This document shows positions 12,232 through 54,851 of a DNA stretch of 64,000 nt, piece after piece. Location of the stretch: contig CADCWE010000179.1 of assembly GCA_902806325.1 (NCBI GenBank), positions 4,124 to 68,123 of the forward strand. The letters are read 5' to 3'. Within the stretch, counting starts at the first letter, position 1. Each line of letters starts with the position of its first letter. The notes under the pieces were generated by a model. That model did not search any database. It was not told the origin of the DNA and saw only the letters and a program-made list of their open reading frames with translations. The position numbers and the translations under genes are program-made. This stretch comes from an uncultured Thermomicrobiales bacterium (GTDB lineage Bacteria; Chloroflexota; Chloroflexia; Thermomicrobiales; UBA6265).

Positions 12232-12903
12232 TCACCCAACCGCCGGCGCGCCGTGCAGGTAAACCGGTTCCAGCGTCGCGGCGTCGTCCGCGTCACCCGC
12301 CAGAAGGCGGTCCCAGGCGAGTTGGGCGACGGAGGCCGGGCGGCGAACGCGCAGGGCCGGCGGCGACACGGCGGCACCGGCGGCGGCGAGGTCGGCGGCG
12401 AGCGCGGCGGGGAACTCGCCGGTGACGAGGGCCGCCGCGCCGATTTCGATGACCCGCGCCAGCAGTTCCACCGGGGTGCCGTTGCGTGGCGGCGTGGGGT
12501 CGTCCCCTCGGGGAATCTCGGCCCAGACGAGCCGGCCGCGACCGGCGGCGAGGACCGGGACCACAACCCCGTGCCAGGCCCGGTGGGGCAGCGCGGCGGC
12601 GGCCAGCGTCGGCACGCCGATTAGGGGGATACCGGTCGCAAGGATCAGCCCCTTCGCCAGCCCGTGGCCGACCCGGAGGCCGTTGTAGGTGCCGGGCCCG
12701 GCGGCGACGGCAACCGCCGCCAGGTCGGAAACGGCGATGCCCGCCAGGCCGAGCAAGCGATCCACCTGGGCTAACAGGACGCGGGTTTGGTCCCGACCGG
12801 CGGGCCAGAGCAGTTCGACCACCCGGTCGCCATCGAAGAGGGCAACGCCAGCCTGTTCGGTCGAGGTGTCGAGGGCGAGGAGAAAGCGGGCGGCGCCGTT
12901 CAT
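12232..12903 (-). CDS. tsaB: tRNA threonylcarbamoyladenosine biosynthesis protein TsaB
   Basis: MNGAARFLLALDTSTEQAGVAL...AVAVAAGPGTYNGLRVGHGLAKGLILATGIPLIGVPTL. Start at the ATG at 12903. The upstream part of the ORF has no homology. Confidence 0.85.
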   Translation of the reverse strand: MNGAARFLLALDTSTEQAGVALFDGDRVVELLWPAGRDQTRVLLAQVDRLLGLAGIAVSDLAAVAVAAGPGTYNGLRVGHGLAKGLILATGIPLIGVPTLAAAALPHRAWHGVVVPVLAAGRGRLVWAEIPRGDDPTPPRNGTPVELLARVIEIGAAALVTGEFPAALAADLAAAGAAVSPPALRVRRPASVAQLAWDRLLAGDADDAATLEPVYLHGAPAVG

Positions 12904-24683: not shown

Positions 24684-25867
24684 GCGCCGGGGGGGGATCG
24701 CGTCCCCGCCGGTTCGATCGCCGGGGGGTGCTGCGTGCCGGTGCCGGGCTGGCGGTGTTGGCCATCGCCGGTTGCGGCGACGACGACGAGGTCGCCCAGG
24801 ACGCGACTCAGGTGCCGACCCCGGACTCGGTCCCAACCCAGGCTCCGATCGGGTCGCCGGTGCCCGGCTACGTCGACGTGGCCGAGAAATGGACCGGCCG
24901 GACGCTGACCATCGCCGGCCTCGGCGGCGCCTACCAGAGCGCCCAGGACGAAGCCTTCTTTAAGCCGTTCGCCGAGGCAACCGGCGTCGACATCGCGCTC
25001 GATGCGGCCTCCATCGGCGGCCTCACCGACCAGGTCGACGACGAGGCCGTGACCTGGGACGTGGTCGACCTGCCGACCGATCGGGTGCGCACCCTCTCCT
25101 CCGCCGATTACCTTTCCGCCATCGACACCCTGCTCGTCGACACGTCCCCCCTGTTCCCGGAGATCGTCGGCCAGTACGCAATCGGCGCGGCGTTCTTCTC
25201 CACCGTGATCGTCTACCCGGCCGCCGCCAACCCACCTGCCGGGTGGGTCGACTTTTGGGATCCGGCGCGTTTTCCCGGCCAGCGGGCCCTGCGCAAGACC
25301 CCGATCGGAACCATGGAATTCGCGCTGCTTGCCGACGGCGTGGCGCCCGACGACTTGTACCCCCTTGATGAGGAGCGGGCCTTCCGCAGCCTGGACCGGA
25401 TCAAGCCGTACGTCGCGTCCTGGTACGAGGACGGCAAGCAGCCGGTCGAGTTGATCGCCAACGCGGAGGTGGCCCTGGCCAGCGCCTGGAACGACCGCGC
25501 GGAGTTGCTGGACCTCGACGAGGTGGTGCGGGTCCAATGGCGCGGCGGCATGCTCTCAAGCCAGTCCTGGGTGGTCCCGCGGGGGGCACCGAACGCCGAC
25601 GTGGCGATGGACTTCGTCAACTTCGCGACCCGGGCGGTGCCCAACGCCAACTTCGCCCGGCTCGTCCCCTTCGGCCCGGTCAACCGGGACGCCTTCGCCC
25701 TCCTCCGCCCGGACCGCCTGGCCAGCCTGCCCAGCGCGCCGGACCACCTGGCCGTCCAGTTTCTAGAGAACGGGAACTTCTGGGCGGAGAACCTGGACCG
25801 GCTGCAAGAGCGGTTCGACGATTGGGTGATCGAGGAATTGCCGGAGACGCCGGAGGGGGAGGGATAA
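24680..25867 (+). CDS. ABC transporter periplasmic substrate-binding lipoprotein (PotD/PotF-like), paralogue
   Basis: MSAGGGSRPRRFDRRGVLRAGAGLAVLAIAGCGDD signal and lipobox. Blocks shared with the upstream SBP: FWDPARFPGQRAL / WWDGARYPEPRAL, FALLADGV, SAWN. An ATGA start/stop overlap joins the two genes. Confidence 0.7.
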   Translation: MSAGGGSRPRRFDRRGVLRAGAGLAVLAIAGCGDDDEVAQDATQVPTPDSVPTQAPIGSPVPGYVDVAEKWTGRTLTIAGLGGAYQSAQDEAFFKPFAEATGVDIALDAASIGGLTDQVDDEAVTWDVVDLPTDRVRTLSSADYLSAIDTLLVDTSPLFPEIVGQYAIGAAFFSTVIVYPAAANPPAGWVDFWDPARFPGQRALRKTPIGTMEFALLADGVAPDDLYPLDEERAFRSLDRIKPYVASWYEDGKQPVELIANAEVALASAWNDRAELLDLDEVVRVQWRGGMLSSQSWVVPRGAPNADVAMDFVNFATRAVPNANFARLVPFGPVNRDAFALLRPDRLASLPSAPDHLAVQFLENGNFWAENLDRLQERFDDWVIEELPETPEGEG

Positions 25868-33942: not shown

Positions 33943-34842
33943 CTACCGCCGCCGTCCCCGCCGGTCGGTCCGCCGGGGCGGGTTGACGACCGGGAGCTGC
34001 GTGGTTTCGGCTTCGGCGCGATCGGCGCGATCGGCGCGGTCGGCGCGGTCGACGCGATCGGCGCGGTCGCCGCGTGCGGCGCGGGGGTGCTCGGGGTCGA
34101 TCCGGTCTTGGGGCGAAGACCCAGCGGCGACGTTGGCGAGGAGGACGTCGTTGTACAGGACGGCGGCGATCACGGCACCGACGGCCGGGCCGAGCCACCA
34201 GATCCAGTGGTCGGCGAAGCTCTGCTGGACCAGGGCCGGGCCGAAGGCGCGGGCCGGGTTCATCACCGCGCCGCTGACGGCGCCGCCGGCCAGGATGTCG
34301 AGGCTGATGGTCAGGCCGATCGCCAGACCGGAGATGGCGCGTCCGGTGCGGTGGTCGATCGCGACGCCGAAGATCACCAACATCAGGAAGAACGTCAGCA
34401 CGATCTCCATCACCAGGGCGTTGCCGGCCGTGTGGTTGAGACCGACGACCGGCACGCCGAGGTCGACCCGGTTGCGCTCGATGTCGCGGTAGACCAACGT
34501 TAAGGCGCCGGCCCCGGCCAGGCCACCGGCGAGCTGGGCGACCACGTAGAGGATGGCGCGGTCGAGTGGCAGGCGACGGGCGATCAGCAGGCCGAGGGTG
34601 ACGGCGGGGTTGAAGGCGCCGCCGGAGATGTGGCCGGTGGCGGCGACCAGGAGGCCGATCGCCAGGCCGTGGGCGAGGGCGATCGCGACCAGGTTTTCCC
34701 CCCCGGTCTGGATCACGCTGCCGACCCCGGCGAAGACCAGGACGAACGGGCCCAGGAACTCGACGATCGCCAGCTTCAGGTACTCCGGATCCCGTTGGGT
34801 GGACGCGGATCGCGCCCGCGCCCCGCCGCGCGCCGTGGCCAT
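33943..34842 (-). CDS. MIP-family channel (aquaporin/glycerol-facilitator-like) with an Arg/Asp-repeat C-terminal tail
   Basis: Two NPA boxes (HISGGAFNPAVT and SGAVMNPARAFGP). The ATG at 34842 is preceded by GAGGAGGA. The tail is RGDRADRVDRADRADRADRAE. Confidence 0.9.
   Translation of the reverse strand: MATARGGARARSASTQRDPEYLKLAIVEFLGPFVLVFAGVGSVIQTGGENLVAIALAHGLAIGLLVAATGHISGGAFNPAVTLGLLIARRLPLDRAILYVVAQLAGGLAGAGALTLVYRDIERNRVDLGVPVVGLNHTAGNALVMEIVLTFFLMLVIFGVAIDHRTGRAISGLAIGLTISLDILAGGAVSGAVMNPARAFGPALVQQSFADHWIWWLGPAVGAVIAAVLYNDVLLANVAAGSSPQDRIDPEHPRAARGDRADRVDRADRADRADRAEAETTQLPVVNPPRRTDRRGRRR
34012..34083. repeat. 9-bp tandem repeat (RTCGGCGCG, about 8 units) encoding the (RAD)n tail of the aquaporin
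   Basis: Units start at 34012, 34021, 34030, 34039, 34048, 34057, 34066 and 34075, with 0-2 mismatches each. Confidence 0.8.
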
Positions 34843-35051: not shown

Positions 35052-35786
35052 CTATGGCCCGTCCTCCTCGATGTCCTCGATGACGATCTCGACGTCGTCC
35101 TCGCCGTCGTCGCGGTCGGGATTGGCGGCGGGGCGGTCGGAGGCGCGGACGGGGGCGGAGCCGCTCCCGGTGACACGGAAGACGAGGGAGTTGAGGAAGA
35201 CCGGGGCGTCGTCGTCGGGGCCGTCGGCGACCGAGACGTAGACGGCGTAGTCCCCGGTCGGCAGGGAACCGTTCAGCGCCAAGGGCAGCGCGACCCAGGC
35301 CGGGACGGGGTCGGTGATGTCGACGGCGGAGGCGCCGATGTCCACGCGGTCGGCGTTGCGCCAGACGGCGCGGACCTGTTGGCCGGGTCGGAGGTGGCTC
35401 AGTTTGGCGCCGGCGTAGACCGTGCCCGCGTCGGCGGGAACGGCGTCGTACTCGCCGTCGGGGCCGCCGGAGTCGACGCGGAGGGAAAGGGCGAGGGCTT
35501 CGAGACCGGTCGCGGCGGGCGCGGTTGGCTGGGGGCTGACCGCCGGGGAGGCGTATTGGGAGGCGATCCGGGTCGCCTGCTGGGCCGGCAGCTCGGCGCC
35601 GCGGGTGGCGGCGCGGCTCTGGCCGCGCCGGGCGTCGTCGGCCTCGCCGGTGGCGCAGGCGGCAAGGGCCGCCAGCAGCGTCGCGGCGAGCAGGACACGA
35701 CCGACCCCGCCCGCCCAACTCCGGGGTTCAGTCGGCGCGCGCGGGATCGGGTTGGGGTGGGGGCGGCCGGTACGGGCCGAACGCAT
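35052..35786 (-). CDS. Putative lipoprotein of unknown function
   Basis: Lipobox LLAALAACATG after a hydrophobic stretch. The C-terminal tail is acidic. The only in-frame start I find is the ATG at 35786, which overlaps the recombinase 3-prime end by 59 nt. Confidence 0.5.
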   Translation of the reverse strand: MRSARTGRPHPNPIPRAPTEPRSWAGGVGRVLLAATLLAALAACATGEADDARRGQSRAATRGAELPAQQATRIASQYASPAVSPQPTAPAATGLEALALSLRVDSGGPDGEYDAVPADAGTVYAGAKLSHLRPGQQVRAVWRNADRVDIGASAVDITDPVPAWVALPLALNGSLPTGDYAVYVSVADGPDDDAPVFLNSLVFRVTGSGSAPVRASDRPAANPDRDDGEDDVEIVIEDIEEDGP

Positions 35787-36843
35787 CCTGGTACTCCTCG
35801 CCCACCTCGATCGAGGACTGGTGGACGTAGATCCGGGTCGTGGCCGGGGAGGCGTGCCCGAGCAGGGTCTGCACGGTCGATTCGCGGACCCGGCGGCGGA
35901 CCAGCTCGGTCGCCAGACCGTGGCGGAACGAGTGGGGCGTGACCTCGCTCTCGATCCCGCACCGTTCGCAGAGCTGGCTGATGATCAGCTCGACCGTGCG
36001 CGGGCTGATCGCGCGGCCGACCTCGCCCAGTTTATCGCGCCCGCTGAAGGCGGGTAGGGCGGCGGCGCCGCGCACCGGGTCGCCGCGAGCCGCCCAATAG
36101 GCGGTCAGGGCGGCGCCGGTCTCGTGGTCGAAGTGGACCGTCCGGCTCTTGCCGCCTTTGGCGCGGTAGATCCCGGCGGTGCCGTTGACCAGGTCCACGT
36201 CGCGGCGGCGTAGGGCGACCAGCTCCGAGACCCGAACGCCGGTGCGGTAGAGGACCAAGACGATCGCCCGCACCTTCAGCCGGCGGAGTTCGGATTCTGG
36301 TCGCTCCTGAGGACGGTCCTCGCGGACGTGGGCGACCAACCGCTCGAGGTCCGCCAGCTTGACGTCCGGCGGCGGCGGGGTGAAGCGGGGCATCATCGCG
36401 GCGAGGCGGACCCGCAGCTTGTCCGTGCCGAGGGCGGGGTGGATGTCGTAGGCGGCGAGGTACGCGCAGAACTTGCGCACCGCGGCCAGGTTGTTCTGGG
36501 CGGTGCGCATCCGCGACACCTCCTCCGGCGTCCGCACGTCCGGCGGCACCAGCAGGGCGGCGAAGGCGGTGACGTGTTCCGGTTGGAGGACGGTGGCCGG
36601 GGCGGCATCGGCGTCGATGCCCTCGTGCTGAGCGAGGTGGCGGAAAAACTTGGCGACGCCGTGGCGGTACGTCTTGCGCGACCGGGGGGCGAGCCGGAGG
36701 TCGCCGAAAAACATCTCGGCGGCGGCGCCGAGGGTCAGGGGGACGGCGTCGGCCGGCGCGGCGACCGGCTCGGTTTCCGCGATCGGGTCGCGGTCTTGGC
36801 GGTCCATCGGCTCTCCCGCACGGTCATCTCTATGTACGTACAT
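35728..36843 (-). CDS. Tyrosine recombinase, XerC/XerD/phage-integrase family
   Basis: Catalytic set: RTGVRVSEL (R), KGGKSRTV (K), HSFRHGLAT (HxxR), LLGHASPATTRIYVH (H...Y). An N-terminal SAM-like domain is present. ATG at 36807 is an alternative start. Sequence alone cannot tell a housekeeping Xer from a mobile-element integrase. Confidence 0.85.
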   Translation of the reverse strand: MYVHRDDRAGEPMDRQDRDPIAETEPVAAPADAVPLTLGAAAEMFFGDLRLAPRSRKTYRHGVAKFFRHLAQHEGIDADAAPATVLQPEHVTAFAALLVPPDVRTPEEVSRMRTAQNNLAAVRKFCAYLAAYDIHPALGTDKLRVRLAAMMPRFTPPPPDVKLADLERLVAHVREDRPQERPESELRRLKVRAIVLVLYRTGVRVSELVALRRRDVDLVNGTAGIYRAKGGKSRTVHFDHETGAALTAYWAARGDPVRGAAALPAFSGRDKLGEVGRAISPRTVELIISQLCERCGIESEVTPHSFRHGLATELVRRRVRESTVQTLLGHASPATTRIYVHQSSIEVGEEYQDAFGPYRPPPPQPDPARAD

Positions 36844-37106: not shown

Positions 37107-37604
37107 CTAGTTCGCCGGGATGGCAACCGGGGGACCGAGCACCGTGACCCCGTAGCGACGTCCGATCTCGGCGATGGCGTCCGGGTCGGGTGGCCCTTCG
37201 AGGGAGGCGAAGTACGTCGACTGGTCGGCGAACATCCCTTCTAACCCTGCCGGGACCACCATCCCTACGACGTGGACGGGATCCGGCTTCAGGTTGGCGA
37301 AGGTGTGGGGAACGCCCCGAGGCAGCCAGGCGACGCCGCCGGCCGGGACGTCGAACCGCTCGTCGCCGAGGACGACCGTAAGCACGCCGGAGATCACGTA
37401 GCTCGCCTCGTCCTCGTGGGCGTGGACGTGCAAGGAAGGACCCGCCGTCATCGCCGGCATGCGAGCCTCGCCGATCACCAGCAGTCCGCCGGTGTCCGCG
37501 CCGACGACCCGCGTCCGCCACGGGCCTCCGCTCGGGCCCCGCGACTCCGCTGGTCCCAGGACGAATGGATCGGTGCTCGGCGCCACGCCGTGGTCCACGC
37601 CCAC
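37107..37604 (-). CDS. Cupin-domain protein
   Basis: LHVHAHEDEASYVISGVLTVVLGDERFDVPAGGVAWLPRGVPHTF (the two cupin motifs). Confidence 0.75.
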   Translation of the reverse strand: MGVDHGVAPSTDPFVLGPAESRGPSGGPWRTRVVGADTGGLLVIGEARMPAMTAGPSLHVHAHEDEASYVISGVLTVVLGDERFDVPAGGVAWLPRGVPHTFANLKPDPVHVVGMVVPAGLEGMFADQSTYFASLEGPPDPDAIAEIGRRYGVTVLGPPVAIPAN

Positions 37605-42590: not shown

Positions 42591-43820
42591 GTGGCGGCGA
42601 ACGGGACCGGGGGGTGGCCGGACGCGATTGTGGTCGGCGGCGGGGTCGTCGGCTGCTCGATCGCCTACCGTCTGGCGGCGCGCGGCAAGCGGGTGCTGCT
42701 CTTGGAGCGGCGCGGGCTGGCGTCCGGTGCCTCCGGACGCAACGGCGGCATGACCGGCGCCGGCTCGGCGATGCACTCCGCCGCCGGCCGGGCAGTCTAC
42801 GCCCTGACCGCGGCCAACCTCTCGCTGCTGCCGGGGTTGGCGGAAGAGTTGGACGCCGACTTCGCCCTCCGCCTGCCGGGAACGCTCGACGTGGCGACCA
42901 CGGAGGCGCAGTGGGCCCACCTGGCCGAGAGCGCGGCCGAGCAGCGCGCCGCCGGTCTCGACGTCCGGCTGCTGGACCGCGACGAGGCCCGCGCCGCGAT
43001 GCCGGCCTTGTCCCCGGCCATCCTCGGGGCGTCGTTCGCCGGCGGGCGGGGCCACCTCTGGCCGTTCGCGCTGGTCCACGGGTTCGCGGACGCGGCCCGC
43101 CGGTTGGGCGTCGAGATCCGGGCCGGGGTCGAAGTCGAGCGATTGTCGCGGGTCGGGGACCGGGTGACCGGCGTGGTCGCCGGTGGGCAGCGGATCGAAG
43201 CCGACGACGTGGTCTTGGCGACCAACGCCTACACGCCCCACCTCCTGCCGGAACTTCCGCCCGGGGCGATCGTCCCCGCGCGGGGCCAGATCCTGGTCAC
43301 GAGCGCGGTACCGCCGCTGTTGCCGCACCCGTTCGGCACCAACTTCGACAAGGAGTACGGGCGCCAAACCCCGGACGGCAAGATCCTCTGCGGCGGTTTC
43401 CGCCGCCTGGACGACGACGAGGGCCTCGGCCACGAGGAGGAGCGGGTGACGCCGGCGGTGCTGGCCGGGATCGCCGGCTGCCTGGCCGGATTGTTCCCGG
43501 TCCTGCGCGACCGGGTCCGGGTGGTCCGGGCGTGGGCAGGGATCATGGGCTTCACCGCCGATGGGCTGCCGCTGATCGGGGCATTCCCCGGAACGCCGGG
43601 CTTGACCGTGGCCGCCGGCTTCAACGGCGGCGGCTTCTCCTGGGCCGCGATCGTCGGCCAAGTGGTCGCGGACCTTGTATCCGGGCGCGACCCGGGGTTC
43701 GACCTGGCGCCGTTCGACCCTGGTCGGTTCTCCGCGGGGAGAACCGCGTGGACCAACCCGTTCACGGCGGGCGAGCGCGCTCGGGTGGTCGGCGCACCGG
43801 CCCTGGCGGGGCCGTCCTGA
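42591..43820 (+). CDS. FAD-dependent oxidoreductase, DAO family (sarcosine/glycine/D-amino-acid oxidase-like)
   Basis: DAIVVGGGVVGCSIAYRLAARGKRVLLLE...GASGRNGG...C-terminal GFNGGGFSWA. GTG at 42591 is preceded by GGAGGG. The upstream part of the track ORF is a shadow of the glycosyltransferase. Confidence 0.8.
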   Translation: MAANGTGGWPDAIVVGGGVVGCSIAYRLAARGKRVLLLERRGLASGASGRNGGMTGAGSAMHSAAGRAVYALTAANLSLLPGLAEELDADFALRLPGTLDVATTEAQWAHLAESAAEQRAAGLDVRLLDRDEARAAMPALSPAILGASFAGGRGHLWPFALVHGFADAARRLGVEIRAGVEVERLSRVGDRVTGVVAGGQRIEADDVVLATNAYTPHLLPELPPGAIVPARGQILVTSAVPPLLPHPFGTNFDKEYGRQTPDGKILCGGFRRLDDDEGLGHEEERVTPAVLAGIAGCLAGLFPVLRDRVRVVRAWAGIMGFTADGLPLIGAFPGTPGLTVAAGFNGGGFSWAAIVGQVVADLVSGRDPGFDLAPFDPGRFSAGRTAWTNPFTAGERARVVGAPALAGPS

Positions 43821-44045
43821 CTCCGGGGTTCGGGGTTGGCCGGATCTCCCCCGGTCCTTTCCGCGGAGACCGTGCTGGCGCGATCTCCCGGCATCGTCCC
43901 GGGCGCCGCGTGCCGGCGCAACGCGGCCGCCCCCATCGGGGCGATCCGGACGTCGGAAGGTCCCGGCCGCCATCATCCGCGCCAGCGCAATCCGCCCCCG
44001 GCCGGGGCGAGCCGGAACGTGGGTTCCGGCTCGCCCCCCACGGCG

Positions 44046-44534
44046 CTACCCCGCGCTCACGCGGGTGCCGTCGACGTTGAGCCTGCAGGTGCATCCCGGC
44101 GGGCATACGTATCCGAAGACCCGGGAGAAGGTGCCGCTGCAGGTTCCCGGCACGGGAGGTTCTACGCGGGTGCCGCCGTAGACGCCGCTGCAGCGGCTCC
44201 CCTCCGCGCATCCGAGCCCGGCGGGCGGGGAGCAGTAGCCGCCGCAGATGACCGACGGCGCGCCGCCGGGTTCCCCCGCGCAGCACCGGGTCGCCGGGTC
44301 GCACTAACCGCTGGCGCAGTGGTCGGTGCGGACGCAGGTCGCGCCAGCGGGCCGGGCCCTCGCCTCGGTCCGCCCGGCGCCGACGAGCGCCGCCGCGCCG
44401 CCACCGATCCCACCGAGCAGGCCCGTGAGCCGCCGGCGCCGGGAGGTCCACCCGCCAGCGCCCGCGTCAGGTCGTGAAGCGTTGCCCGTCCTTGCCGTGC
44501 CTCCTCCTCGTGTCCCGCCGCGCCCCGACCCCAC
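44046..44534 (-). pseudogene. Tat-signal, cysteine-rich small secreted protein interrupted by an in-frame TAG
   Basis: The ORF 44304-44534 ends ...WTSRRRRLTGLLGGIGGGAAALVGAG...ATCVRTDHCASG-TAG. The same frame continues for 85 codons: CDPATRCCAGEPGGAPSVICGGYCSPPAGLGCAEGSRCSGVYGGTRVEPPVPGTCSGTFSRVFGYVCPPGCTCRLNVDGTRVSAG-TAG (13 Cys in total). I translated this by hand from the reverse strand. Confidence 0.45.
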
Positions 44535-44593
44535 CGACGATCCGGTGGCCGTGGGGGGGCGCTACCAATCGCCACCCGGCGCCACGCGCCGTG

Positions 44594-44839
44594 TCAAACG
44601 CCCTGCCGCTTGGAGACCGCCGGCACGCGGCCGAGGACCGCGACGTGCGGCAGGTCCGGCAGGCCGCGGGCGGCGGCGACCCACGCCGCCCGCCGGTCCA
44701 AGCCCAGCGGGGATGGCTGCGGCTGCTCCGCTCCCGGCTGCGGCCACGCCGTCCGCGCCAACCTGGCCCGCGCCGCGCGAACCGCGTCCTGGCACCGTCG
44801 ATTGGTATCGACTTCTTGGAAATTCAGGTTCGCGACCAT
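44594..44839 (-). CDS. Possible 81-aa protein of unknown function
   Basis: The ATG at 44839 is preceded by GGAGGA, 8 nt upstream. The protein begins MVANLNFQEVDTNRRCQDAVRAARARL. GC3 is high after the first codons. It lies between the beta-propeller gene and the Cys-rich gene on the same strand. I recognise no family. Confidence 0.3.
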   Translation of the reverse strand: MVANLNFQEVDTNRRCQDAVRAARARLARTAWPQPGAEQPQPSPLGLDRRAAWVAAARGLPDLPHVAVLGRVPAVSKRQGV

Positions 44840-45001
44840 CGCTGCGGTCCTCCGTTGCCCCGCGGCTTGGCAGCCCCGCCCGCCGCCCTCGCTCGCTCGT
44901 CGGTCATCACCATCCGCCAAGGGTGGCAACACGCCCTACGGCGTTCCGGGAGCGGCGGGGACGATTACGCCAGCCCCGGCCGCCGCCACCGAGCCGGTGG
45001 A

Positions 45002-46351
45002 TCAGCGTGACCGGACCGCCAGCCCGTGCGGATCGGATGTGACCGCCCCGTCGGCGCCGAGGTGGACGATCGGTGCCACCCCGACCAACTCGCCCGTGCG
45101 ACCGTCAGGTCCGACCCGTGCGACGCCGAGCCCAGGCGAGGAGCCGACGGCGTTGTTCGCCCCCTCCACGTTGGCCGAGAGGGGCACGGGACCGCGCAGG
45201 GCCATGAAGACCCAGTCCCCGTCCGGCGAGGCGGCGATCAGGTCCGGGGCCGGATCGGCCGAGAACTCGCCGGCCAGATCGATCTCGGCGACGACCTGGT
45301 CGGTCGCGACCTCGACGACGATGATCCGGTTGCCGGCGCGGTCGGCGACCCAGACGTAGGCGTCCCCGTTGACCAGGACGCAGCCGTGCGTATCGGTCCC
45401 GGTGTGGCTGTAGTGGAAGATCTCGGTCGGGGCCGGCGTGTTGGGCGGGCTCGGCGCGGTCGAGAAGGCAGCGACCTCGAAGGCGTAGAGGTCGGCCGCG
45501 AAGGGGGATAACGCCGTGCCGCCGCTGGAGTTGAGGTAGAGCGTGCCGGCCGTCTCGGCCCCGACGCAGCCGTTGGGGCGGATGGTGGCGGCGTCGTACT
45601 CGGCGACGATCGCCATTGGCGTTGCCAGGCTATCGACGACGAAGAGACCGCCGCCGCGCAGAGTCACGGCCGTGAAGCGCGCGTCGGCGGTGACGACCGG
45701 GCAGGCCGGGGCGTTGTCCGGCCGCAGGGTCGGATCCTCGCAGGCCGCGCCGCTGGGGGTGGTGCAGATGGCGAGGTCGAGGGTCGCCGCGTCTTCCAGG
45801 GCGAAGATCCCGGCCGCGTAGTCGGTCCGGATGCGCTGCAAAAGCTTGCCGTTTTGGTTGGCGACGATGACGTAGGACTCATCCGGCGCCGGGTAGGCGG
45901 CGTGGGCCTGCTCCCCGACGTCGCGGCACGCGACGGGGGTCCGCGATGCCGCGTCGATGAACAGGACGTGCCCGGTGGCGACGAAGGCCACCACGGCGTG
46001 GGTTTCGCTCGCGTTGACCATCAACATGTGCGGGCGCTTAGGGGCGGTGCCGGTCTGGGCCAGGCAGAGCGCCCTGGCCTCGCCGCCCAGGTCGACGACC
46101 TCCGGCTCGGCGGTGGCGGCCGCCGTTGTCAACCCGGCGCTGGGGTAGACGTACAGCGTGCCGCCGCCGTCGGCGGTCGTGTCCGATTGGTCCATGACCC
46201 AGACTTCGAAGGACGAACGGGCGAATGCGGCCTGCGCCGAGGCATCCGAAGGGGACCCGGCGCCTCCAATCCCGACCGAGAACGCCAACGCCAGCGGCAA
46301 AGTAACGGTGACGACAACCAGCGACAGGCGGGCCAACGAGAGCGGGTTCAT
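45002..46351 (-). CDS. Secreted beta-propeller protein (YVTN/YncE / cytochrome-d1-like repeat family)
   Basis: Signal peptide MNPLSLARLSLVVVTVTLPLALAFS. Repeated blade-like segments include VWVMDQ, HAVVAFVATGHVLFIDA, YVIVANQNG, GGLFVVDS, YVWVADRAGNRIIVVEV, SPDGDWVFMALRGP. Confidence 0.65.
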   Translation of the reverse strand: MNPLSLARLSLVVVTVTLPLALAFSVGIGGAGSPSDASAQAAFARSSFEVWVMDQSDTTADGGGTLYVYPSAGLTTAAATAEPEVVDLGGEARALCLAQTGTAPKRPHMLMVNASETHAVVAFVATGHVLFIDAASRTPVACRDVGEQAHAAYPAPDESYVIVANQNGKLLQRIRTDYAAGIFALEDAATLDLAICTTPSGAACEDPTLRPDNAPACPVVTADARFTAVTLRGGGLFVVDSLATPMAIVAEYDAATIRPNGCVGAETAGTLYLNSSGGTALSPFAADLYAFEVAAFSTAPSPPNTPAPTEIFHYSHTGTDTHGCVLVNGDAYVWVADRAGNRIIVVEVATDQVVAEIDLAGEFSADPAPDLIAASPDGDWVFMALRGPVPLSANVEGANNAVGSSPGLGVARVGPDGRTGELVGVAPIVHLGADGAVTSDPHGLAVRSR

Positions 46352-47172
46352 GGTGAGTCCTCAAGATCCGCGAGACGGGGCCGGCGATCCGGCGCACCGG
46401 ACGAGTGGACGGTCACGCCGCCAGGTCGCGGATTGACGTCCGCCCGGATCGGAGTCGGTCTCGGGGGATCGCCGGCCGTTCTTCGCATCGGAGGGCCGAG
46501 TCAGCATCGCGTGGGATGGTCTGCCCCCCGTCGAACGCCCCGTCGTTGCATCGCCGCGGTGTGTCCGTCGCGGTACCGTGGCCGCGAGTCGGGTGGCCGG
46601 GCACGAGCGGCGCGCTCGCTCGAGCGGCGAGGCGTTGCTGTCGGGAGTCCCGCAGCTCCGCGGCCAACTCATCGTCGTACGCCGCATCCGTCGGCGACCT
46701 CGTCCCAAGGGCGGCGAGGTCGTGTTTGTTCGAACGTGGGAACTAGTGGCTGTCGTGCGCGAGACCACCGCCGCCGCGCAGCGCCGCTCCGGTCACTCGG
46801 AGCCGGTTGCCGACCGCGGTCACCGCCACGTACGAGGGTCGACGCGATGCGGCGGGTACGCTGCCAGTCGACCGGAGCGGCCCGAACCGGTCGGCGTCTG
46901 CGACCCGCGTCCGATGCTCGGCGATGCGTGCGTTTGCCGTGACCAAGTCCAGGTCTAGGGTCATCGTGGTGTCCTACCTCCATGGGTAGTTGGGTGGTGG
47001 CTGCCCCGCGTTGGGTGGTCTCCACGGTAGATCTATGGACTGCCCGGTTCATCGGTACGAGTACCCTGTTTGGCCCCGGTGCGGTACTCAATCGCGCGCA
47101 CGATGTTGCCACGCCGCCGCTGGCCCGGGGGGACGCGAGGCCGAGGGCCGGCGATCTGGCGGCGGCGGTCGG

Positions 47173-49674
47173 TTAAGGCGTCGTGGGATCATCGGGCTCG
47201 ACGAGCCCGGCGGCGATGGCGGCGCTGACGGCCGCGGTCCGCGTCCGGACGCCGAGCTTGGCGAGGATATGGGCAACGTGGCGCTCGACGGTGCGGACAC
47301 TGAGGAAGAGCGTCTCGGCGATCTCGCGGTCGGCGCTCCCGGCCAGGAGCAGGCCGAGCACCTCGTGCTCGCGCGCCGAAAGCGTGACGGCGGCACGGTC
47401 GAGCGCTCCCGCGGCAGCAGCGGGTGGGGACATGCTCCGCACCTCCGCCGTCGCGCTCGCCACCGTGAGCCCGCGCCCAACCGCCCAGGCAGCTTGGAGG
47501 TCCTGCTCTCCCAACGCCGCGCGGGCGACGGCCAAGGCGCGCTCGTGCGCCGCCCGGTCGGTCGGGACGACAAACGTGCCGCCGAACTGCTCCCGCAGCG
47601 CCTCCGCGGCGCCCAAGAGCCGCGCGGCCCGCACCGGCTGATGCCAGGCCGCCGCCGCCAGCGCCGCCCCTTCCAGGGCGTCGACGACGACGCGCAGATC
47701 CCCCCGCTCGCCCAGCAACCCCAGGCACTCGCGATAGAACGTCACCGAGCCGGCGTAGTCGCCTTGGTCGCGCGCCACGTCACCCAGGTCGCGCAGCGAG
47801 CGGACGACGCCGATGGCGTAGCCGTGGGCGCGGCAGGTGGCGAGCGACCGCTCGTGCCGCGCCCTGGCGAGGGCGAAGTCCCCCCGGCCGTGCGCGGCGA
47901 GACCGAGGTTCGCGAGCACCATCCCGGTCACGGACGCGGCGACGATCGGGTCCTCGATGGCCGCCGCTTCGACGAGCGCCTCCTCGAGCACGCGCTCGGC
48001 ACGGTCGTGCGTCCCGCGGTCGATCGCGATCCCGCCTCGCCGGAGGAGCGCCATGGCCAGGGTTTGCGCGTCGTCGTTCTCGCGCAGAAGCGCGACCGCC
48101 TCGACGATGAGGCGATCCGCGCGCTCGGTCTCACCCTGGAACGCCAGCAACCACGCCAACCCGACGAGCGCCCGGGCGCGCGCGGACCGGTCACTTCGCG
48201 GGTCGGACGCCAGCGCGCGGTCCAGCCAGATGCTCCCTTCCCGATAGTGGCTGTGGCCGTACCAGAACCCGCCCAGCGCGGCAGCCAGACGAAGCAGGCG
48301 CCCGCCGTCGGTGCGCCGATCGAGCCAGCCGAGGGCCGCGCGGAGGTTGCCGTGCTCGGCATCCAGGCGCCGCAATGCTCGCTCGCCGTCCGGCAGGATC
48401 CATGCCGACTGGCTTCCCTCCGCCAAGGCCAGGCACCAGTCCGCGTGTTCGTCACCGACGGCGTCGCGCTCGTTCTTGGCGACGAGTTGCTCCAATGCAA
48501 ACGCCCGAATGGTCTCCAACATGGAAAAGCGCGCCTCAGGTGCCCCCGCTTCCTGCCGCACCAGGCTCTTGTCCACCAACGATGAGACGAGGTCGAGGGT
48601 CGGGGGCCGGGGGCCGAGAGCAGAACCATCGCTCGTTCGAATCGTATCGCTCGACGCTCGACTCAGGGACTCGGCCGCCGCCAAGGGAAAGCCGCCGACG
48701 AAGACGCCGAGGCGCCGAAACAGGATCCGCTCGTCGTCCGTCAGGAGGTCATAGCTCCAGGCGACGGCGTTGTCCATCGTACGCATGCGATCCGGCGCGT
48801 TCCGCGGAGCGGCGACCGGCAGCGGCAGTCGCTCCTGGATCCGGGCCAGGAGCGCGGCGGGCGGGAGGACGGCGCTTTGCGCGGCGGCGAGCTCGATCGC
48901 GAGGGGCAGGCCATCGAGGCGCCGGCAGATGGCGGCCACCAGCGGAACGGTGGTCTCCGTCAGGACGAAGGCCGGGTTGACCGCGAGGGCGCGCGCCGCA
49001 AAGAGCCGGACCGCCGCCGATCCCATCAGGAGTTCGAGCGTGTCGCGCTCGTCGGTGCCGGGCAGGTCCAACGGCGGGACCGGGAAGGCGTGTTCGCCGG
49101 GGACCCGCAGAAGTGCCCGGCTCGTCGCCAGCACCTTGAGGTGGGGGCAGGCCGCGAGCAGGTCGCTCACGAACGGGGAGGCGGCCAGGACGTGCTCGAA
49201 CGTATCGAGGACGAGCAACGCCTCCGCGTCGCGAAGGGCGACCAGCAGGGCGTCGCTCGCCGAAATGCCGCGGGTCTCCTGGACGCCGAGGGAGCGGGCG
49301 ACGGAGGCCGCGACCAGGCCGGCGTCGGGAACGGCGGCCAGTGGAACGAAGCGGACCCCGTCGGCGAGCGTGGGCATGGCCTCGCGGGCGATCTCCAGGG
49401 CGAGGTGCGTCTTGCCGATGCCGCCGGCGCCGGTCAGGGTCAGGAGGCGGACATCGAATCGGCGCAGGAGCGCCCGGACCGCCGCGACCTCGCGCTCGCG
49501 GCCGATCAACGGCGTGAGCGCCCGCGGCAACGGGGCGAACCGGTGCTCGCCGCCGCGCGGCGACGACCGCGGGGGGGAACGCTGGTCGTGGAGCGGCGAC
49601 AGAGCGGAAGCCATGAGGTTCTCCCGGAGACCGTCCGGTATCGGTCGCCCCAGGGGCGACCGCTGGCCGGTCAT
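47173..49674 (-). CDS. STAND-type transcriptional regulator: NB-ARC ATPase, TPR array and C-terminal LuxR-type HTH
   Basis: Walker [14 protein letters not shown], Walker [16 protein letters not shown] signature [14 protein letters not shown], long TPR-like helical repeats, and the Lux[49 protein letters not shown]. Confidence 0.85.
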
Positions 49675-52100
49675 GCCGGCGTGGAGGGACCGGGCGCCGC
49701 AAACCCGGCGTCGATGGCGGCGCGGACGGCCGCCGTCCGCGTCCGAACGTCGAGCTTGGCGAGGATATGGGCGACGTGGTGCTCAATGGTCCGTACGCTG
49801 AGGGCCAGCGCCTGGGCGATCTCGCGGTCGGGGTGCCCGGCCACGAGCAGGCGGAGGACGTCGACCTGCCTCGGGGTCAGGGATCCGAGCCGCGGGCTGA
49901 CCACGGCCCGCTCTTCGACACCGGCGGGCCGCTCCGGCGGCGCAAGGGCCTCCGCGACGACCTGGGCCAGCGGCAGCGCCCGCCCGGCCGCCCAGGCGGT
50001 CGCGAACGACGCCTCGCCCAAGACTGCGCGAGCGGCGGTCGTCCCCTGCTCATGGGCCGCTTGGGCCAGCGGGTCCCGCATCGTAATGCCCGTGGTCTCG
50101 CGCAGCCGTTCCGCCGCCGCGTACCAGCGCGTGGCGGTCAGCGCCTCGCGGGCGGCCGCAGCCGCCCACGCCAGGCCCTCCAGCGCGTCGGCGATGGCCC
50201 GCCGCTCGTCGCCGTCCCAGGCCAGCGCCAGGCCGTCGCGGTAGCACGCGGTTGCGCGGTCCAGGTCTCCCTGACTGCGCGCGACGTTGCCGAGGTCGAC
50301 GAGGGACAGCGTCTCTCCCCAACTGTTCCCGGCCGCCCGTCGCTCCGCCAATGCCTCCTCGTGGTAGGCCATCGCCGTCGCGAGCCGGCCCTGACCGTGG
50401 ACCGCCGTGCCGAGGTTGGCGAGGGCCGAGCTCGCCAGCGCCGTCGTCTGGCGCGGATCGACCATGTTCCGTGCCACGGTCAGAGCGTTCCAGAAGTGGG
50501 CCGCGGCCAGGTCGTAGTCCCCTCGGACCTGGGCCACCGCGCCACGCGCGATCAGCGCGCGGGTGGTCTCCACAGGATCGTCGGCCGCGAGCGCGAGCGA
50601 ATGGCTTTCCACCGCCAGGCGGTCGGCCTCCGCGAGGTCGCCCCGCGTCACCATCATCAGGCTCAACAGGCCCGCCATCTTGGCTTGGGTCGGGGTCGGC
50701 GCCGCGGCCGGCGTCCGCACCCGGCCCAGCCAGGTCAGGCCGTCGCGCAGGTATCCGCGGATGAACCAGAACCAGGCCAGGGCGCCGGCGAGGCGAGCGA
50801 TGTCTGCCTCCGCGCCGGTCTCCGCCAGCCAGCCGAGGGCCGCTCGCAGATTGGCGTGTTCGGCATCAAGGCGGTCGAGTCGACGCCGGTCGCCGGGGAG
50901 GGACGGCTCCGCTTGCCACCGCTCGGCAAATGCCAGGAAATACGCGGCATGGGCCTGGACGGCGGACTCCGCTTCGCCGCTCGCCGCCAGCCGTTCCGCC
51001 GCGTATTCGCGGATCGTCTCCAGCATCCGGTAACGCGCCGTCCCGTCACCGTCGAGCTCGTTCCGCAGCAGACTCGCCTCGACCAACGCGGCGATACCGT
51101 CGAGAGTGATCGGTGCCGCGTCATCAGTGCTCGGGTCCCCGCCCCCGTTCCCTGTCACCCACTCGGCGGCCTCCAGGGTGCAGCCGTCGGCAAAGACGGA
51201 GAGGCGGCGGAACAGGGCTTGTTCCCCGGGCGAGAGCAGTTCGTAGCTCCAGGCGATCGCGTTGCGCAAGGTGCGGTGGCGGTCCGGCCGATCGCGTGCG
51301 CCGCCGGTGAGCAGCGGCAGCCGGCGTTCGAGCCGCGTCAGCAAGGCCGCCGGCGGCAGCACGGCGACCCGCGCCGCCGCCAGCTCGATGGCGAGCGGCA
51401 GCCCGTCCAGGCGCCGACAGATCGCCGCCACGACGGTAGCCTGCTCCGTCGACAGGACGAAGTCGGCCTGCACCGCCCGCGCTCGCTCGACGAATAGCCG
51501 GATCGCCTCGTACGCCGCCACCTCCGCCAGGACCGGATCGTCGGTCGCCGGCGGGTGCGCCAGCGGCTGGACGACGACGCGGTGTTCCCCGGAGACGCGC
51601 AATGCGGTGCGGCTGGTCACGAGCATCTTGAGTCCGTCGCAGGCGCCGAGCAATTCGGTCAGGAGCGGCGCCGCTTCCACGACCTGTTCGAAGTTATCAA
51701 TCACCATCAGCAGTTGCCGGTCGTGGAGGAAGGCCACCAGGTCCTCCACCACCGGGCGGTCGCCGCGCTCGCGCAGCCGCAACGCCCGGGCGATGGTCGG
51801 TCCGACGAGCGCGGGGTCCCGAACCTGCGCGAGCCCGACGAAGACGACGCCGTCGGTGAAGTCCGTCGCCATCCCGGTTCCGACGGCCAGGGCGAGGCGC
51901 GTCTTGCCGATGCCGCCGGGGCCGGTCAGGGTCAGGAGGCGGACGTCGGGGTCTCGCAGTCGTTCCTGGACGATCTCGATCTCGCGCTCGCGACCGATCA
52001 GCGGCGTGAGCGGGACCGGAAAGGGGTTGAGCTCGTCGCGGGCGCCAGGCAGCAACGTGAGGGATTGCCGGACCAGATCCGGTGACGGCGAGTGAGCCAT
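49671..52100 (-). CDS. STAND-type transcriptional regulator: NB-ARC ATPase, TPR array and LuxR HTH (paralogue of the downstream gene)
   Basis: [83 protein letters not shown]. Its stop overlaps the next start (ATGA at 49671-49674). Confidence 0.85.
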
Positions 52101-52452
52101 GCCGTCATCCTCACGAGCGCGTGGTGGCGACCTCCGCGCGGTGCGGTGCGGGTTCGAGCGAGGGGCGGGGCGGCCGGAGACGGCGGGGAATCAGGGTGTG
52201 CCTGGGTCGCACTGGACGCACGCCAAGGTACACCGGCGAACCAAGGGTGTCAAACCCCGCCGCGCGGCAGCGACGCCGGTCGTGGCGGGCTGCTGGCGAT
52301 CGACGACCTCTCCAGCGCGCTGGGCGCCGAGGCGAAGCGCGGGCTCACCGTCGGGCGTCCAATGGGCGGATCGGCGACGGTAGACTCAGCGGCGAGGAAC
52401 GACGGCCACGCTCGATCGCGGGCCCACGGACGGCGCCGGTGTTACGGCCGCC

Positions 52453-52908
52453 AACCTCCCCTACGGCAAGATCCTCTTCGGCGCCTTCCGGCGCCTGGAC
52501 GAGGACGAAGGCATCGGCCACGACGAGGAACGGGTGGCGCCGGCGGTGCTGGCCGGGATCGCCGGCTGCCTGGCCGGATTGTTCCCGGTCCTGCGAGACT
52601 GGGTCCGGGTCGTCCGCGCCTGGGCCGGGATCATGGGCGTCACCGCCGACGGGCTGCCGCTGATCGAGAGGACGCCCGGAACCCGTGGCCCGTTCCTGAC
52701 GGCGGGCTTCAACGGCGGGGGCTTCTCCTGGGCGGCGATCGCCGGCCGGGTCGTCGCCGACCTGGTTTGTGGGCGCTCCCCGGGCTTCGACCTGGCGCCG
52801 TTTCGGCCGGGCCGGGTCGCGGAGGGCGGCACCGCCTGGAGCAACCCGTTCACCGCCGGGAAGCGGAGCGCGGTGGTCGGGGCGCCGGCGCTGGCGGGCC
52901 CGGGCTGA
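52453..52908 (+). pseudogene. 3-prime fragment (copy B) of the DAO-family oxidoreductase gene at 42591-43820
   Basis: It translates to NLPYGKILFGAFRRLDEDEGIGHDEERVAPAVLAGIAGCLAGLFPVLRDWVRVVRAWAGIMGVTADGLPLI...GFNGGGFSWAAI...NPFTAGKRSAVVGAPALAGPG-stop. This is collinear with residues ...PDGKILCGGFRRLDDDEG... to the stop of the intact gene. It includes a 58-nt perfect match (52538-52595 = 43450-43507). There is no N-terminal half and no start. Confidence 0.85.
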
Positions 52909-52995
52909 CGAAAGGGTTCGGGCGGAACCAAGGGCGAGCCGGCATGCCCGTGGCCATTGCTGGCGCGATGGGGATGGCCGAGGGCCGCCGGCCCG

Positions 52996-53547
52996 TCAGC
53001 GAAAAAGCACGGCGACGGGGAGGCGGAAGCCGGGCACCACGTCACCGCCGTCCAATTCTTCGGTCTCGAGCAGGGTCAGCGGCCCGCGTCCGGCGGCGTA
53101 GGCGACGACCGCCCGGCGGCGGGGGAGGACGAGCCAGAGCAGCGGAACCCCGGCCCGCTGGTAGAGTTCGATCTTCTCCGCCACTTCGTCGAAAGGGTCG
53201 TTCGGGGAGACGACCTCGACGGCCAGGTCGGGCGGGTAGGGCGCGATCTTCCAGCGCTCGGCCTCCGGGCGCAGCCGGTCGGCGCGGACGAAGGCGACAT
53301 CGGGGATCAGGATCCTGTCCGGCTCACGGAGCACGATGAACTGGGTGTCGGACGGGTAGATTCGACCCAACCCGTGAGCGAAGACGTGCGAGCCGAGCGG
53401 GACGGTGATCTGGATCTCGATCTCTCCGTGGCGCATGCTCACGCCGGGTTTCTCCCGCGGCTCGTCGCCGATCAGTTCCAGGCGCGCACCGGCGCTGCCC
53501 ATCCGTTCGACGTCGGCGGCGGTGAACGGGCCGGTGATCGTGGACAC
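52996..53547 (-). CDS. Uma2-family (DUF820) PD-(D/E)XK endonuclease
   Basis: MRHGEIEIQI..., IPDVAFV, PDLAVEVVSPND, KIELYQRAGVPLLWLV. These are typical Uma2 motifs. GTG start at 53547. Confidence 0.8.
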   Translation of the reverse strand: MSTITGPFTAADVERMGSAGARLELIGDEPREKPGVSMRHGEIEIQITVPLGSHVFAHGLGRIYPSDTQFIVLREPDRILIPDVAFVRADRLRPEAERWKIAPYPPDLAVEVVSPNDPFDEVAEKIELYQRAGVPLLWLVLPRRRAVVAYAAGRGPLTLLETEELDGGDVVPGFRLPVAVLFR

Positions 53548-53644
53548 GGCGTTCGCTCCGGTCGAAGACGGTCCCGGCGGTCACCGCGCTTGGCGAGTCC
53601 GCGCCAAGATCATAGCATCGCCACCTTAACCGGCGATTGCGCGC

Positions 53645-53721
53645 GATCGTCTGGGGCAACCCGTTCACCGCCGGGGAGCGGAGTCGTCGTCGGGACGCCG
53701 GTGTTGGCGGGTCCGAATTGA
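53645..53721 (+). pseudogene. About 75-bp remnant (copy C) of the extreme 3-prime end of the DAO-family oxidoreductase gene
   Basis: tggggcaacccgttcaccgccggggagcgg...ggcgggtccgaattga aligns with tggaccaacccgttcacggcgggcgagcgc...ggcggggccgtcctga (43751-43820). It carries a 1-nt deletion and keeps the TGA at the equivalent position. Confidence 0.7.
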
Positions 53722-54035
53722 AGGGCGATCCGGTCCGCAAGGTTGAACGTGGCGACCCGGCTCGGGCCGTCCGGTGCCAACGCGGACCGGTTGAGACCGC
53801 CGATTAGGATCAGCACGGCGTTGATGCGATCTCCCGTTGAACCCGAGGACGTGAACCGCCGCGGACGTTCGCATCCGTGCCGCGCTTGCGGTTCTGGCCA
53901 GGCGGCGCACGATCGGACGCCCCGCAATGACTCGGGCCGCCGTCGCCTCCAACTCGTCGGTTGGTTCGGTGGCCCGGTGCGGGCGATCGCGCTGGTCGGA
54001 ACGGAGGTCGCGAGGGCGCGGTCGGTCGCTTGCGA

Positions 54036-54851
54036 CTACCCCTCGATCCGCGCCAGGTACCGCGCCGCCGATCGCCGGACCGCTCCCTTCGCGTCCGGCG
54101 TAACGACGTGGTCGGGCCAACTGCCGTAGAGGACCTCGAACGGGTAGGGTTCGACGGCGGCGGCGATGCGACGGATCGCGACCGGGCCGAGCGGGATCAG
54201 GTTGGGGTAGCTGTAGAGGAAGCTGACCCAGCGGCGGTCGGCCACCACCATGATCGTGTCGCCGGTCAGCAGGGCGCCCGCGCCGTTCGCGCCGCCGGCC
54301 CAGTGGAGGACGCAACTGCCCGGAAAGTGGCCACCGCAGCGAATCAAGGTCAGGCCGCTGCCCGGCAGCACGTCGGCGCTGTCGCCGTCCCAGAAGCGGA
54401 TCGCCGGGTCGGGGCGGGTCACCCACTCCTGGTCGTCGGCGTGCAGCAGGACCGGGATGCCGCCGAAGGCGCGGCTCCACTCGGCGATCCCGGTGTAGAG
54501 GTGCGGGTGCGAGACGGTGATCGCCGCCAAGCCGCCCAAGCCTTCGATGTGGGCCACGGTATCGTCGTCGATCAGGTTGACGCAATTCCAGAGCACGTTG
54601 CCGGCCGGGGTCGCGATCAGGTGGGCCTGCTGGCCAATGGCGAAACTCGGCCGGGTTACGATCCCGGTCAACCCCTCGGCGACGGGCTGGACGAGGTTGT
54701 GGCGGTCGCCGCGCAGGGCTTCCAGGGTTGTCCAGCGTTGGCCGCCGTGGCCGACGTACTGGCGCTCGTCGTCGCAGATCGGGCACCGCTCCGGCGGCTC
54801 GGCCGATTCCGGGAACTGGGCGCCGCAGGTGGCGCAGATCGGGTGCTCCAT
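54036..54851 (-). CDS. MBL-fold hydrolase-like protein with an N-terminal CxxC...CxxC zinc-ribbon
   Basis: HPICATCGAQFPESAEPPERCPICDDERQYV, then AITVSHPHLYTG...LLHADD...GGHFPG. The ATG is preceded by GAGGAG. Confidence 0.7.
   Translation of the reverse strand: MEHPICATCGAQFPESAEPPERCPICDDERQYVGHGGQRWTTLEALRGDRHNLVQPVAEGLTGIVTRPSFAIGQQAHLIATPAGNVLWNCVNLIDDDTVAHIEGLGGLAAITVSHPHLYTGIAEWSRAFGGIPVLLHADDQEWVTRPDPAIRFWDGDSADVLPGSGLTLIRCGGHFPGSCVLHWAGGANGAGALLTGDTIMVVADRRWVSFLYSYPNLIPLGPVAIRRIAAAVEPYPFEVLYGSWPDHVVTPDAKGAVRRSAARYLARIEG

Follow-up and report, generated by a model that had tools for sequence, protein, structure and literature searches.

How does the 3′ end of a metabolic gene come to lie three times in succession on one contig, with unrelated genes between the copies? 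The question is raised by a stretch of 64,000 nucleotides, hereafter the window, of contig CADCWE010000179.1 (positions 4,124 to 68,123) from an uncultured Thermomicrobiales bacterium of the Chloroflexota, with a GC content of 71%. The window carries an intact gene for a DAO-family FAD oxidoreductase (nt 42591-43820, plus strand; 409 amino acids from a GTG start; Pfam DAO, 2e-73), and parts of its 3′ end recur downstream. The end of the intact gene is called copy A here, and the two repeats are copies B and C. We propose that these three nested DAO ends are probably the scars of at least two successive insertions of site-specific integrative elements into the DAO gene.

Copy A (nt 43356-43820, plus strand) comprises the last ~155 codons of the intact gene. 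Copy B (nt 52443-52908, plus strand) is a start-less fragment of the same end, and copy C (nt 53645-53721, plus strand) retains the last ~24 codons. Self-BLAST of the window aligns nt 43356-43834 of A with nt 52443-52922 of B at 81.7% identity over 481 nt (E 6e-130) and nt 52833-52902 of B with nt 53648-53715 of C at 82.9% over 70 nt (E 4e-12); A and C share 74% over 61 nt. Up to the stop codon B runs collinear with A; its nt 52459-52908 are free of indels and of internal stops, and one indel, of 1 nt, is found close to the left edge of the copy. The likeness of A and B runs on beyond the stop codon, where GGGTTCGGG and TGCTGGCGCGAT occur in both. C has a 1-nt frameshift (its translation reads VWGNPFTAGERS/VVGTPVLAGPN*) and a conserved TGA at nt 53719-53721. 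A perfect run of 58 nt, exact and maximal, is shared by A (nt 43450-43507, plus strand) and B (nt 52538-52595). The first-pass annotation, made from the letters of the window, had described the nested copies, the collinear start-less B, the similarity past the stop, the frameshift and kept TGA of C, and the 58-nt run, and all of these are borne out by the alignments. The same layout is found in two further sequences. The ENA assembly contig L081 (36.6 kb) is 99.7% identical to the window over 20.5 kb and covers all three copies, with the DAO gene likewise called at 409 amino acids, and the Logan contig L082 is 100% identical over 1777 bp spanning the 3′ part of B, the Uma2 gene that follows it, and C. 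The accessions of the two, ERZ1300029 and ERR3885239, are close, so that they possibly come from one shared sample.

In relatives of this bacterium, the DAO end is linked to an integrase. A one-genome-per-species scan gave 80 DAO loci, which were compared with the window by tblastn with composition correction. The closest homologues of the window DAO all come from metagenome-assembled genomes (MAGs) of Thermomicrobiales/Sphaerobacteraceae (Chloroflexota), the nearest being L083 (88% amino-acid identity), on a 1.5-kb contig with 23 nt after the stop, followed by P0003 (81%). A tyrosine integrase gene lies directly after the DAO stop in L033 (Phage_integrase, 1e-27) and in L043, where it is frameshifted. 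In a protein-database search the L033 integrase falls into a clade of 12 clusters (P0121-P0132; 49-100% identity) with the next matches at ~32%, and a scan of metagenome contigs with the same integrase returned distant relatives only (<=34%). In all eight readable contexts of the clade (8/8), a DAO 3′ end, the equivalent of the A segment, lies immediately upstream of the integrase. An intact DAO gene precedes the integrase in L033, L043, L091 and the P0124 contig, and a DAO gene cut by the contig end does so in L093 and L090. Among these loci, L043 lies on contig CADCWL010000242, and the P0124 contig, of 41.8 kb, belongs to JGI sample 3300047160; L083 corresponds to JGI 3300017789 Ga0136617_10232593. 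The elements of P0124 and L088 continue with HTH_3, three unknown open reading frames (ORFs) and Replic_Relax, to which P0124 adds Phage_rep_O and ParA; these backbone genes point to a self-replicating or transferable integrative element.

The DAO end also travels with the integrase into a gene of another family. In L088 and L089, the N-terminal half of an arginase-family gene continues in frame into the ~450-nt DAO end, which is followed by the integrase. The L088 chimera (nt 8556-9532 of that locus) matches Pfam Arginase (1e-37; profile 2-138/280) and then DAO (profile 222-352/353), with the junction at YFGM|EYGRQTP. This chimera is best understood as the product of an element insertion at a secondary site, with an arginase/agmatinase-family gene as the target. 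Because L088 and L089 carry the ~450-nt DAO end into a non-DAO gene, this end belongs to the element, where it sits in the arm that adjoins the integrase, and the crossover can be placed. DAO homology in the fusion begins at the core position, and the crossover is presumed to lie at or just left of GGAGTACGG (codons E-Y-G). The corresponding site in the window, the presumed core of an attL-type attachment (att) junction, is nt 43350-43372 on the plus strand (AAGGAGTACGGGCGCCAAAC, codons K-E-Y-G-R-Q). Within it, GAGTACGG at nt 43353 survives in the coding core of A only, the core of B reading GTGTTACGG. Copy B begins within about 10 nt of the GGAGTACGG crossover, and so does the DAO homology of a fragment on L079, another contig of the MAG that contains L033. 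This start-less fragment (nt 624-1086 of L079, fragment 1) is 80% identical to the DAO end of L033; its left edge and the start of the window's B are ~10 nt apart, and it is preceded on the left by AAGTACGG/AAATACGG sites.

The integrase-linked loci have in common a non-coding arm, placed between the stop codon of DAO and the start of the integrase, with the pattern GAAGTACGGGTTTCGG - GNNGGCCGTATTTCCTCCGG - GCGAAGTACGGG - GAAGTACGG, ~100 nt long and containing three AGTACGG repeats. The AGTACGG unit is found again in the core and on the left side of the L079 fragment, and is a plausible candidate for an integrase-binding repeat. The arm is clear in L033, L088, L092, L093 and L090 and weaker in L091 and L043; it also follows copy A of the window, the DAO gene of L083, L079 fragment 1 and, in part, that of L011. 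The strict pattern stands after the DAO stop in 1/72 species-representative loci, namely the integrase-linked L033, and most such loci without an integrase have nothing arm-like, with weaker versions in L043, L079 and partly L011. In L011 (~nt 11206-11240) the DAO gene stops short, and the CGTCTGAAGTACGGGT that comes after it is the same as the first arm site of L033, with no integrase beyond; L011 is probably another fossil of the same element family.

In the window, nt 43821-43885 (plus strand) constitute a decayed remnant of this non-coding P′ arm, and the homology ends at ~43885, the expected position of the integrase. Nt 43824-43875 match nt 2278-2328 of L033 at 77% over 52 nt (E 8.6e-5). 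When the sequence downstream of A was searched against 1.25 Mb of loci, the L033 arm was the best match and the L093 arm the next. It reads GGGGTTCGGGGTTGGCCGGATCTCCCCCGG...GCGGAGACCGTGC, matching the GGGTTTCGG..GGCCGTATTTCCTCCGG of the family arm, which is degraded after B and absent or unclear after C. Since the remnant after A matches the integrase-linked arm, the 3′ end of A is interpreted as derived from an L033-type element. Copy A would then have formed the coding portion of the P′ arm in the latest element, and the window's DAO gene would be a chimera of a native 5′ two-thirds and an element-derived 3′ third. The left flank is native; the pair formed by the GT1 (glycosyltransferase) gene and the DAO gene is syntenic in five relatives; downstream of DAO the context differs widely among relatives.

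The two longer copies differ in their state of preservation. The C-terminal third was aligned with ~75 orthologues, and the 64 columns that are >=90% conserved were scored. None of them is altered in A (0/64), and 12/64 are altered in B, the highest number among all sequences aligned. On this account A is judged to be the working gene end and B an old, decaying end that has been displaced, a pseudogene and attR-type scar. The comparison of B with A over residues 384-531 of A gives 79.7% amino-acid identity. The ratio of nonsynonymous to synonymous divergence (dN/dS) between A and B is 0.32, with a dS of 0.44, a value consistent with a divergence that took place in part under selection and in part in a pseudogene. 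The sequence following the stop of B (nt 52909-52975, plus strand) is weakly similar to the arm remnant of A (GGGTTCGGG, CCGG, TGCTGGCGCGAT), although it gave no significant match to the arms of integrase-bearing loci in the 1.25 Mb searched. Because this sequence resembles A's arm remnant and shares states such as TGCTGGCGCGAT, it suggests that B itself was formerly an element-borne end, brought by a related element. C is interpreted as an older truncated end and the oldest of the scars.

These observations can be assembled into a succession of events. In the relatives, the element encodes a tyrosine integrase and has an attachment site in which the final ~450 nt of the DAO gene are present as a spare copy; the order is the spare DAO end, then the ~100-nt arm with its three AGTACGG repeats, then the integrase gene. 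Recombination at GGAGTACGG would join the 5′ two-thirds of the host gene to the 3′ third carried by the element, keeping the enzyme intact, and the former 3′ end would be left, as a fragment without a start, beyond the other end of the element. A first insertion at the EYG codons would have supplied the ancestor of B and pushed that of C downstream. A second, related element, inserting at the same place, would have supplied A and displaced B together with the remains of the first element. Subsequent deletions would have removed the integrases, backbones and binding repeats, bringing the array to its present form with Uma2 between B and C and 8.6 kb between A and B. The genes left over would be two LuxR-type STAND regulators, a propeller protein, a broken gene for a Cys-rich secreted protein, and Uma2. 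Gene conversion between the copies would have produced the 58-nt identical run. The array is by now a fixed and probably immobile fossil. Serial insertion into a protein gene had been put forward in the first-pass annotation, and it gains support from the integrase-DAO linkage, the L088 fusion, the left edge of B and the arm remnant of A. The same annotation had found no integrase inside either module, which holds (tblastn over nt 43821-53645 detected neither an integrase nor a remnant of one), and had called the mechanism unexplained. The missing integrase is now explained by its loss from decayed elements, which we infer from the relatives, as we do the window's own events.

Several results weigh against this reading. 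Between A and C, tblastn and motif searches revealed no integrase, no backbone gene and no AGTACGG repeat, and the AGTACGG arm repeats are likewise missing near A, B and C. The genes found in the array are the regulators, the propeller, small ORFs and Uma2, with none for recombination or transfer, and tblastn of the L088 backbone proteins against the window gave one weak match, to the unrelated recombinase at nt 35791-36042. To the left of B there is no similarity to nt 1-623 of L079, the one right end of an element that is known. A and B share derived arm states (TGCTGGCGCGAT), which fits related elements but also the duplication of one scar, and C is short (~75 nt), with no diagnostic arm in the search against the 1.25 Mb of loci. 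The trees of the 5′ and 3′ parts show no clear incongruence for A; its 3′ third groups with L083, then L001, and with B, and not with the L033/L088 arms, so that phylogeny gives no independent proof that the end of A is foreign, and no disproof of it either. The GC profile of the cargo shows no contrast with the flanks, where the first-pass annotation had suggested looking for one. STAND-LuxR genes stand near DAO, at varied positions, in several relatives; for this reason, and for the lack of a GC contrast, part of the 8.6-kb cargo between A and B may be a later arrival and not have been brought by the element. Nor did an empty site, also suggested by that annotation, come to light: among the 80 species-level loci and the near-identical contigs, there was no empty-site allele, no cargo polymorphism and no excision product. 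The genes of the window's right flank (a 271-aa ORF, SnoaL, APH and DUF3500) are beside DAO in 0/80 of these loci, whose downstream contexts are unrelated to that of the window, and the sole near-identical contigs (99.7-100%) carry the same array.

Not all steps of the proposed history are equally secure. The A-B step of the arrangement described earlier as A-cargo-B-cargo-C is supported; the B-Uma2-C step is less secure, as it rests on a remnant of ~75 nt that lacks the arm. Alternatively, a single insertion may have made A and B, and C and Uma2 would then be due to a later local event with no second element insertion, either a partial duplication of B's end or Uma2 inserting into a longer scar, with a deletion afterwards. 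The small size of C, its greater closeness to B (83% versus 74% to A), its want of an arm match, and a B-C interval with one gene and no att-like features would all agree with such an event. We nevertheless regard it as unlikely, since the arm-like remnant after B that resembles A's implies that B once occupied an attL position, and since the succession of full scar, small gene and shorter scar is met again, independently and with other genes, in L079 and as a related pattern in L005, which fits repeated turnover. In L079, fragment 1 is followed by a DinB_2 gene (nt 1299-1823) and then by a second, more degraded DAO piece; L005 contains an intact DAO gene, small genes and a scar, with a SRAP gene at nt 11972-12715. 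Because scar arrays with one small gene also exist in these two loci, the DAO site appears to be used, and to decay, time and again.

The single genes between scars in the three genomes, DinB_2 in L079, SRAP in L005 and Uma2 in the window, all lie on the strand opposite to DAO. That they are small genes of stress, DNA-damage or nuclease type could be a coincidence or the result of preferential retention. Serial insertion could be taken further: the DAO 3′ end may be a long-lived capture site at which elements swap the last third of the enzyme (150 amino acids) and leave behind single genes of stress, DNA-damage or defence type. We consider this extension distinctly unlikely. If it were true, the elements would drive the evolution of chimeric oxidoreductases and of an accessory-gene array that outlasts the integrase, and the 58-nt tract and the mosaic DAO gene of L083, described below, would bear witness to an exchange between scars and the live gene that still goes on.

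Little credence is given to the view that the DAO 3′ end underwent an ancient local segmental duplication without any mobile element, after which the copies diverged and unrelated genes were gained between them. The lack of an integrase inside the array and of a compositional contrast would be expected from it; A, B and L083 form one clade, and the only close strain has the same layout. Duplication leaves unexplained, however, why B starts within ~10 nt of the crossover of an integrase family, why A is followed by an arm that otherwise precedes an integrase, and how DAO ends travel with an integrase into an arginase gene. A tandem duplication would also have copied the intervening genes, which is not seen in the self-BLAST.

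The 58-nt run bears on another possibility, a homologous (Campbell-type) insertion of a circular element through the ~450 nt of DAO homology, with the crossover in the run instead of at GGAGTACGG. With 83 mismatches in 447 nt, a run of this length has P = 2.5e-4 under random mismatch placement, and being so improbable by chance it would mark the crossover; moreover, the DAO gene of L083 is a mosaic, resembling A at either end and half resembling B in its middle part, which shows homologous exchange in the region. Such an insertion has the same topology as a site-specific one and is therefore a variant of it and not a true alternative, and the boundary of the fragment would still reflect an element-borne segment. 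Identity between A and B is similar on the two sides of the run (85% left, 81% right) and B is decayed on both, which later gene conversion fits better. As the run is too long for chance and L083 is a mosaic, gene conversion between A and B is the simplest account, and the run is probably a tract of this kind; insertion by homology has a very low probability. The run was considered as an att core as well and rejected as improbable, the crossover lying ~95 nt to its left in three independent junctions. Finally, an assembly artefact or a chimeric joining of strains with diverged DAO alleles has a negligible probability, for although the source is metagenomic and 82%-identical repeats can mislead assemblers, L081 and L082 reproduce the layout, so that misassembly by a single assembler is unlikely, and B and C are truncated, decayed pieces and not complete alleles of the gene.

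Serial site-specific insertion being the preferred reading, the genes enclosed by the scars can be considered in turn. From 44 to 56 kb all genes, those of the cargo included, are encoded on the minus strand. The first, at nt 44046-44534, is an ORF for a Cys-rich protein with a twin-arginine translocation (Tat) signal (SRRRRLTGLLGG...), interrupted by an in-frame TAG at nt 44304-44306. Its GC content at third codon positions (GC3) is 0.87-0.92, the coding-type GC3 runs on past the TAG, and the same TAG is present in L081; the ORF is likely to be either a pseudogene of recent origin or a split gene. Selenocysteine was ruled out, the codon being TAG and not TGA. On the plus strand, the ORF at nt 43836-44477 has no coding signature. 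An 81-aa ORF follows at nt 44594-44839 (minus strand; GC3 0.87; no Pfam match), called as a gene in L081. A predicted beta-propeller of 449 amino acids is encoded at nt 45002-46351 (minus strand), with weak, below-threshold matches to YNCE and PQQ-associated propellers. Two STAND-TPR-LuxR regulators come next on the minus strand, regulator 1 (AAA_16/NB-ARC type) at nt 47173-49674 (GerE, 6e-15; TPR_12; AAA_16 and NB-ARC below threshold) and regulator 2 at nt 49671-52100 (Pfam GerE, 1e-14; NB-ARC, 8e-9). They are tandem paralogues that overlap by 4 nt and share 67-80% nucleotide identity in blocks, and regulator 1 is split into two ORFs in L081. Between B and C, the sole gene encodes a Uma2-family PD-(D/E)XK nuclease (nt 52996-53547, minus strand; Pfam Uma2, 1.3e-28), which matches the PADLOC candidate defence family PDC-S03 (3e-11). 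The gene content given in the first-pass annotation is borne out, with the corrections that the Tat gene is on the minus strand with an in-frame TAG, that nt 43836-44477 are non-coding and that the cargo genes all have this minus-strand orientation. In the related locus L072, duplicated BrnA-antitoxin-like segments (nt 805-887 and 1810-1892) lie just downstream of DAO and ahead of a STAND-LuxR gene; the L088 element carries a BrnT/BrnA pair.

The window contains a recombinase gene outside the array, at nt 35728-36843 on the minus strand, which encodes an Xer-like tyrosine recombinase of 371 amino acids (Phage_integrase, 2e-31; Xer-type models below their cut-offs). It is unlikely to be the cognate enzyme, being Xer-like and 31% identical to the DAO-linked clade, with no att-like direct repeats found around it. 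It lies directly downstream of a cupin gene (nt 37107-37604), between aquaporin and MMPL transporter genes. Six copies of a 9-nt tandem repeat (TCGGCGCGR) occur at nt 34004-34084, inside an extended ORF upstream of the aquaporin domain. A tRNA gene as the target was also considered: ARAGORN calls a 96-nt 'tRNA-Ala' over the DAO stop (nt 43769-43864), which was judged spurious for want of Rfam support, cmscan at E <= 1 finding no tRNA in nt 43000-54500. ARAGORN calls a second long 'tRNA-Ala' of 93 nt at nt 24743-24835.

The relatives thus disclose an element family with a defined target gene, the crossover motif GGAGTACGG and candidate integrase-binding repeats. Such a family of integrative elements has apparently not been described in the Thermomicrobiales (Chloroflexota), whose mobile elements are, to our knowledge, little studied. 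The replaced end is unusually long; each insertion would yield a chimeric oxidoreductase, and a mis-targeted one an arginase::DAO fusion. In annotating these genomes, a start-less DAO fragment, or a DAO gene with the arm motif behind it, can be taken to mark an element that is or once was present.

Insertion into the 3′ end of a protein gene has precedents. The first-pass annotation had held it to be much rarer than insertion into tRNA or tmRNA genes; yet it is not rare among published cases, the 3′ ends of icd, fda, rpsI, rpmG and rplL having all been reported as insertion targets (PMC6379469, PMC7563491). In the icd gene of E. coli, e14 and phage 21 supply a diverged 3′ end and leave a displaced fragment, which for e14 is a 163-bp icd′ (PMC6379469). 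The scars in the window resemble this system in the tyrosine-integrase family, the 3′ part of a metabolic gene as target, the replacement end and the displaced pseudogene fragment. The border repeat of the e14 type is present in the window, with the target 3′ end at both borders, A intact and B start-less. An integrase beside the att site, as in e14, is found in L033, L043, L088, L091, L093 and the P0124 contig, and none is found in the window. Unlike e14, the end in the window is ~3 times longer (~450 nt or 150 codons, one third of the enzyme), a DAO-family oxidoreductase of a Thermomicrobiales host is the target, the scars are three deep, and the integrase has been lost.

Integrase-less decayed elements with att repeats, known as cis-mobilizable elements (CIMEs), occur in tandem at fda, rpsI, rpmG and rplL in streptococci (PMC7563491). 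By definition CIMEs keep usable att sites and are mobilisable in cis, and the streptococcal att repeats measure tens of bp. The window is similar to these CIMEs, and to the accretion of ICEs (integrative and conjugative elements) and IMEs (integrative and mobilizable elements), in its integrase-less tandem at the 3′ end of a protein gene and in its small remnants with few cargo genes. In contrast to CIMEs, the core of B and all the arm repeats are degraded and the repeat is ~450 nt long instead of tens of bp, and the copies are more likely dead scars than a mobilisable CIME.

Displaced 3′ ends without a start, lying downstream of a gene that is intact and each with a small gene after it, are also known from the orphan C-terminal modules of rhs and cdiA. 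Those modules arise by homologous replacement of toxin tips with their immunity genes, whereas the gene in the window is a metabolic oxidoreductase with a family of site-specific integrases linked to its end. With the genomic islands at tRNA and tmRNA genes, the window shares the replacement 3′ end, the serial use of one site and the nested repeats. The target in the window is, unlike theirs, protein-coding, so that synonymous sites may diverge in the incoming end, which can also change the protein. The triple repeat of the DAO end would in this way be explained without a new mechanism, by one that is already known from other genes.

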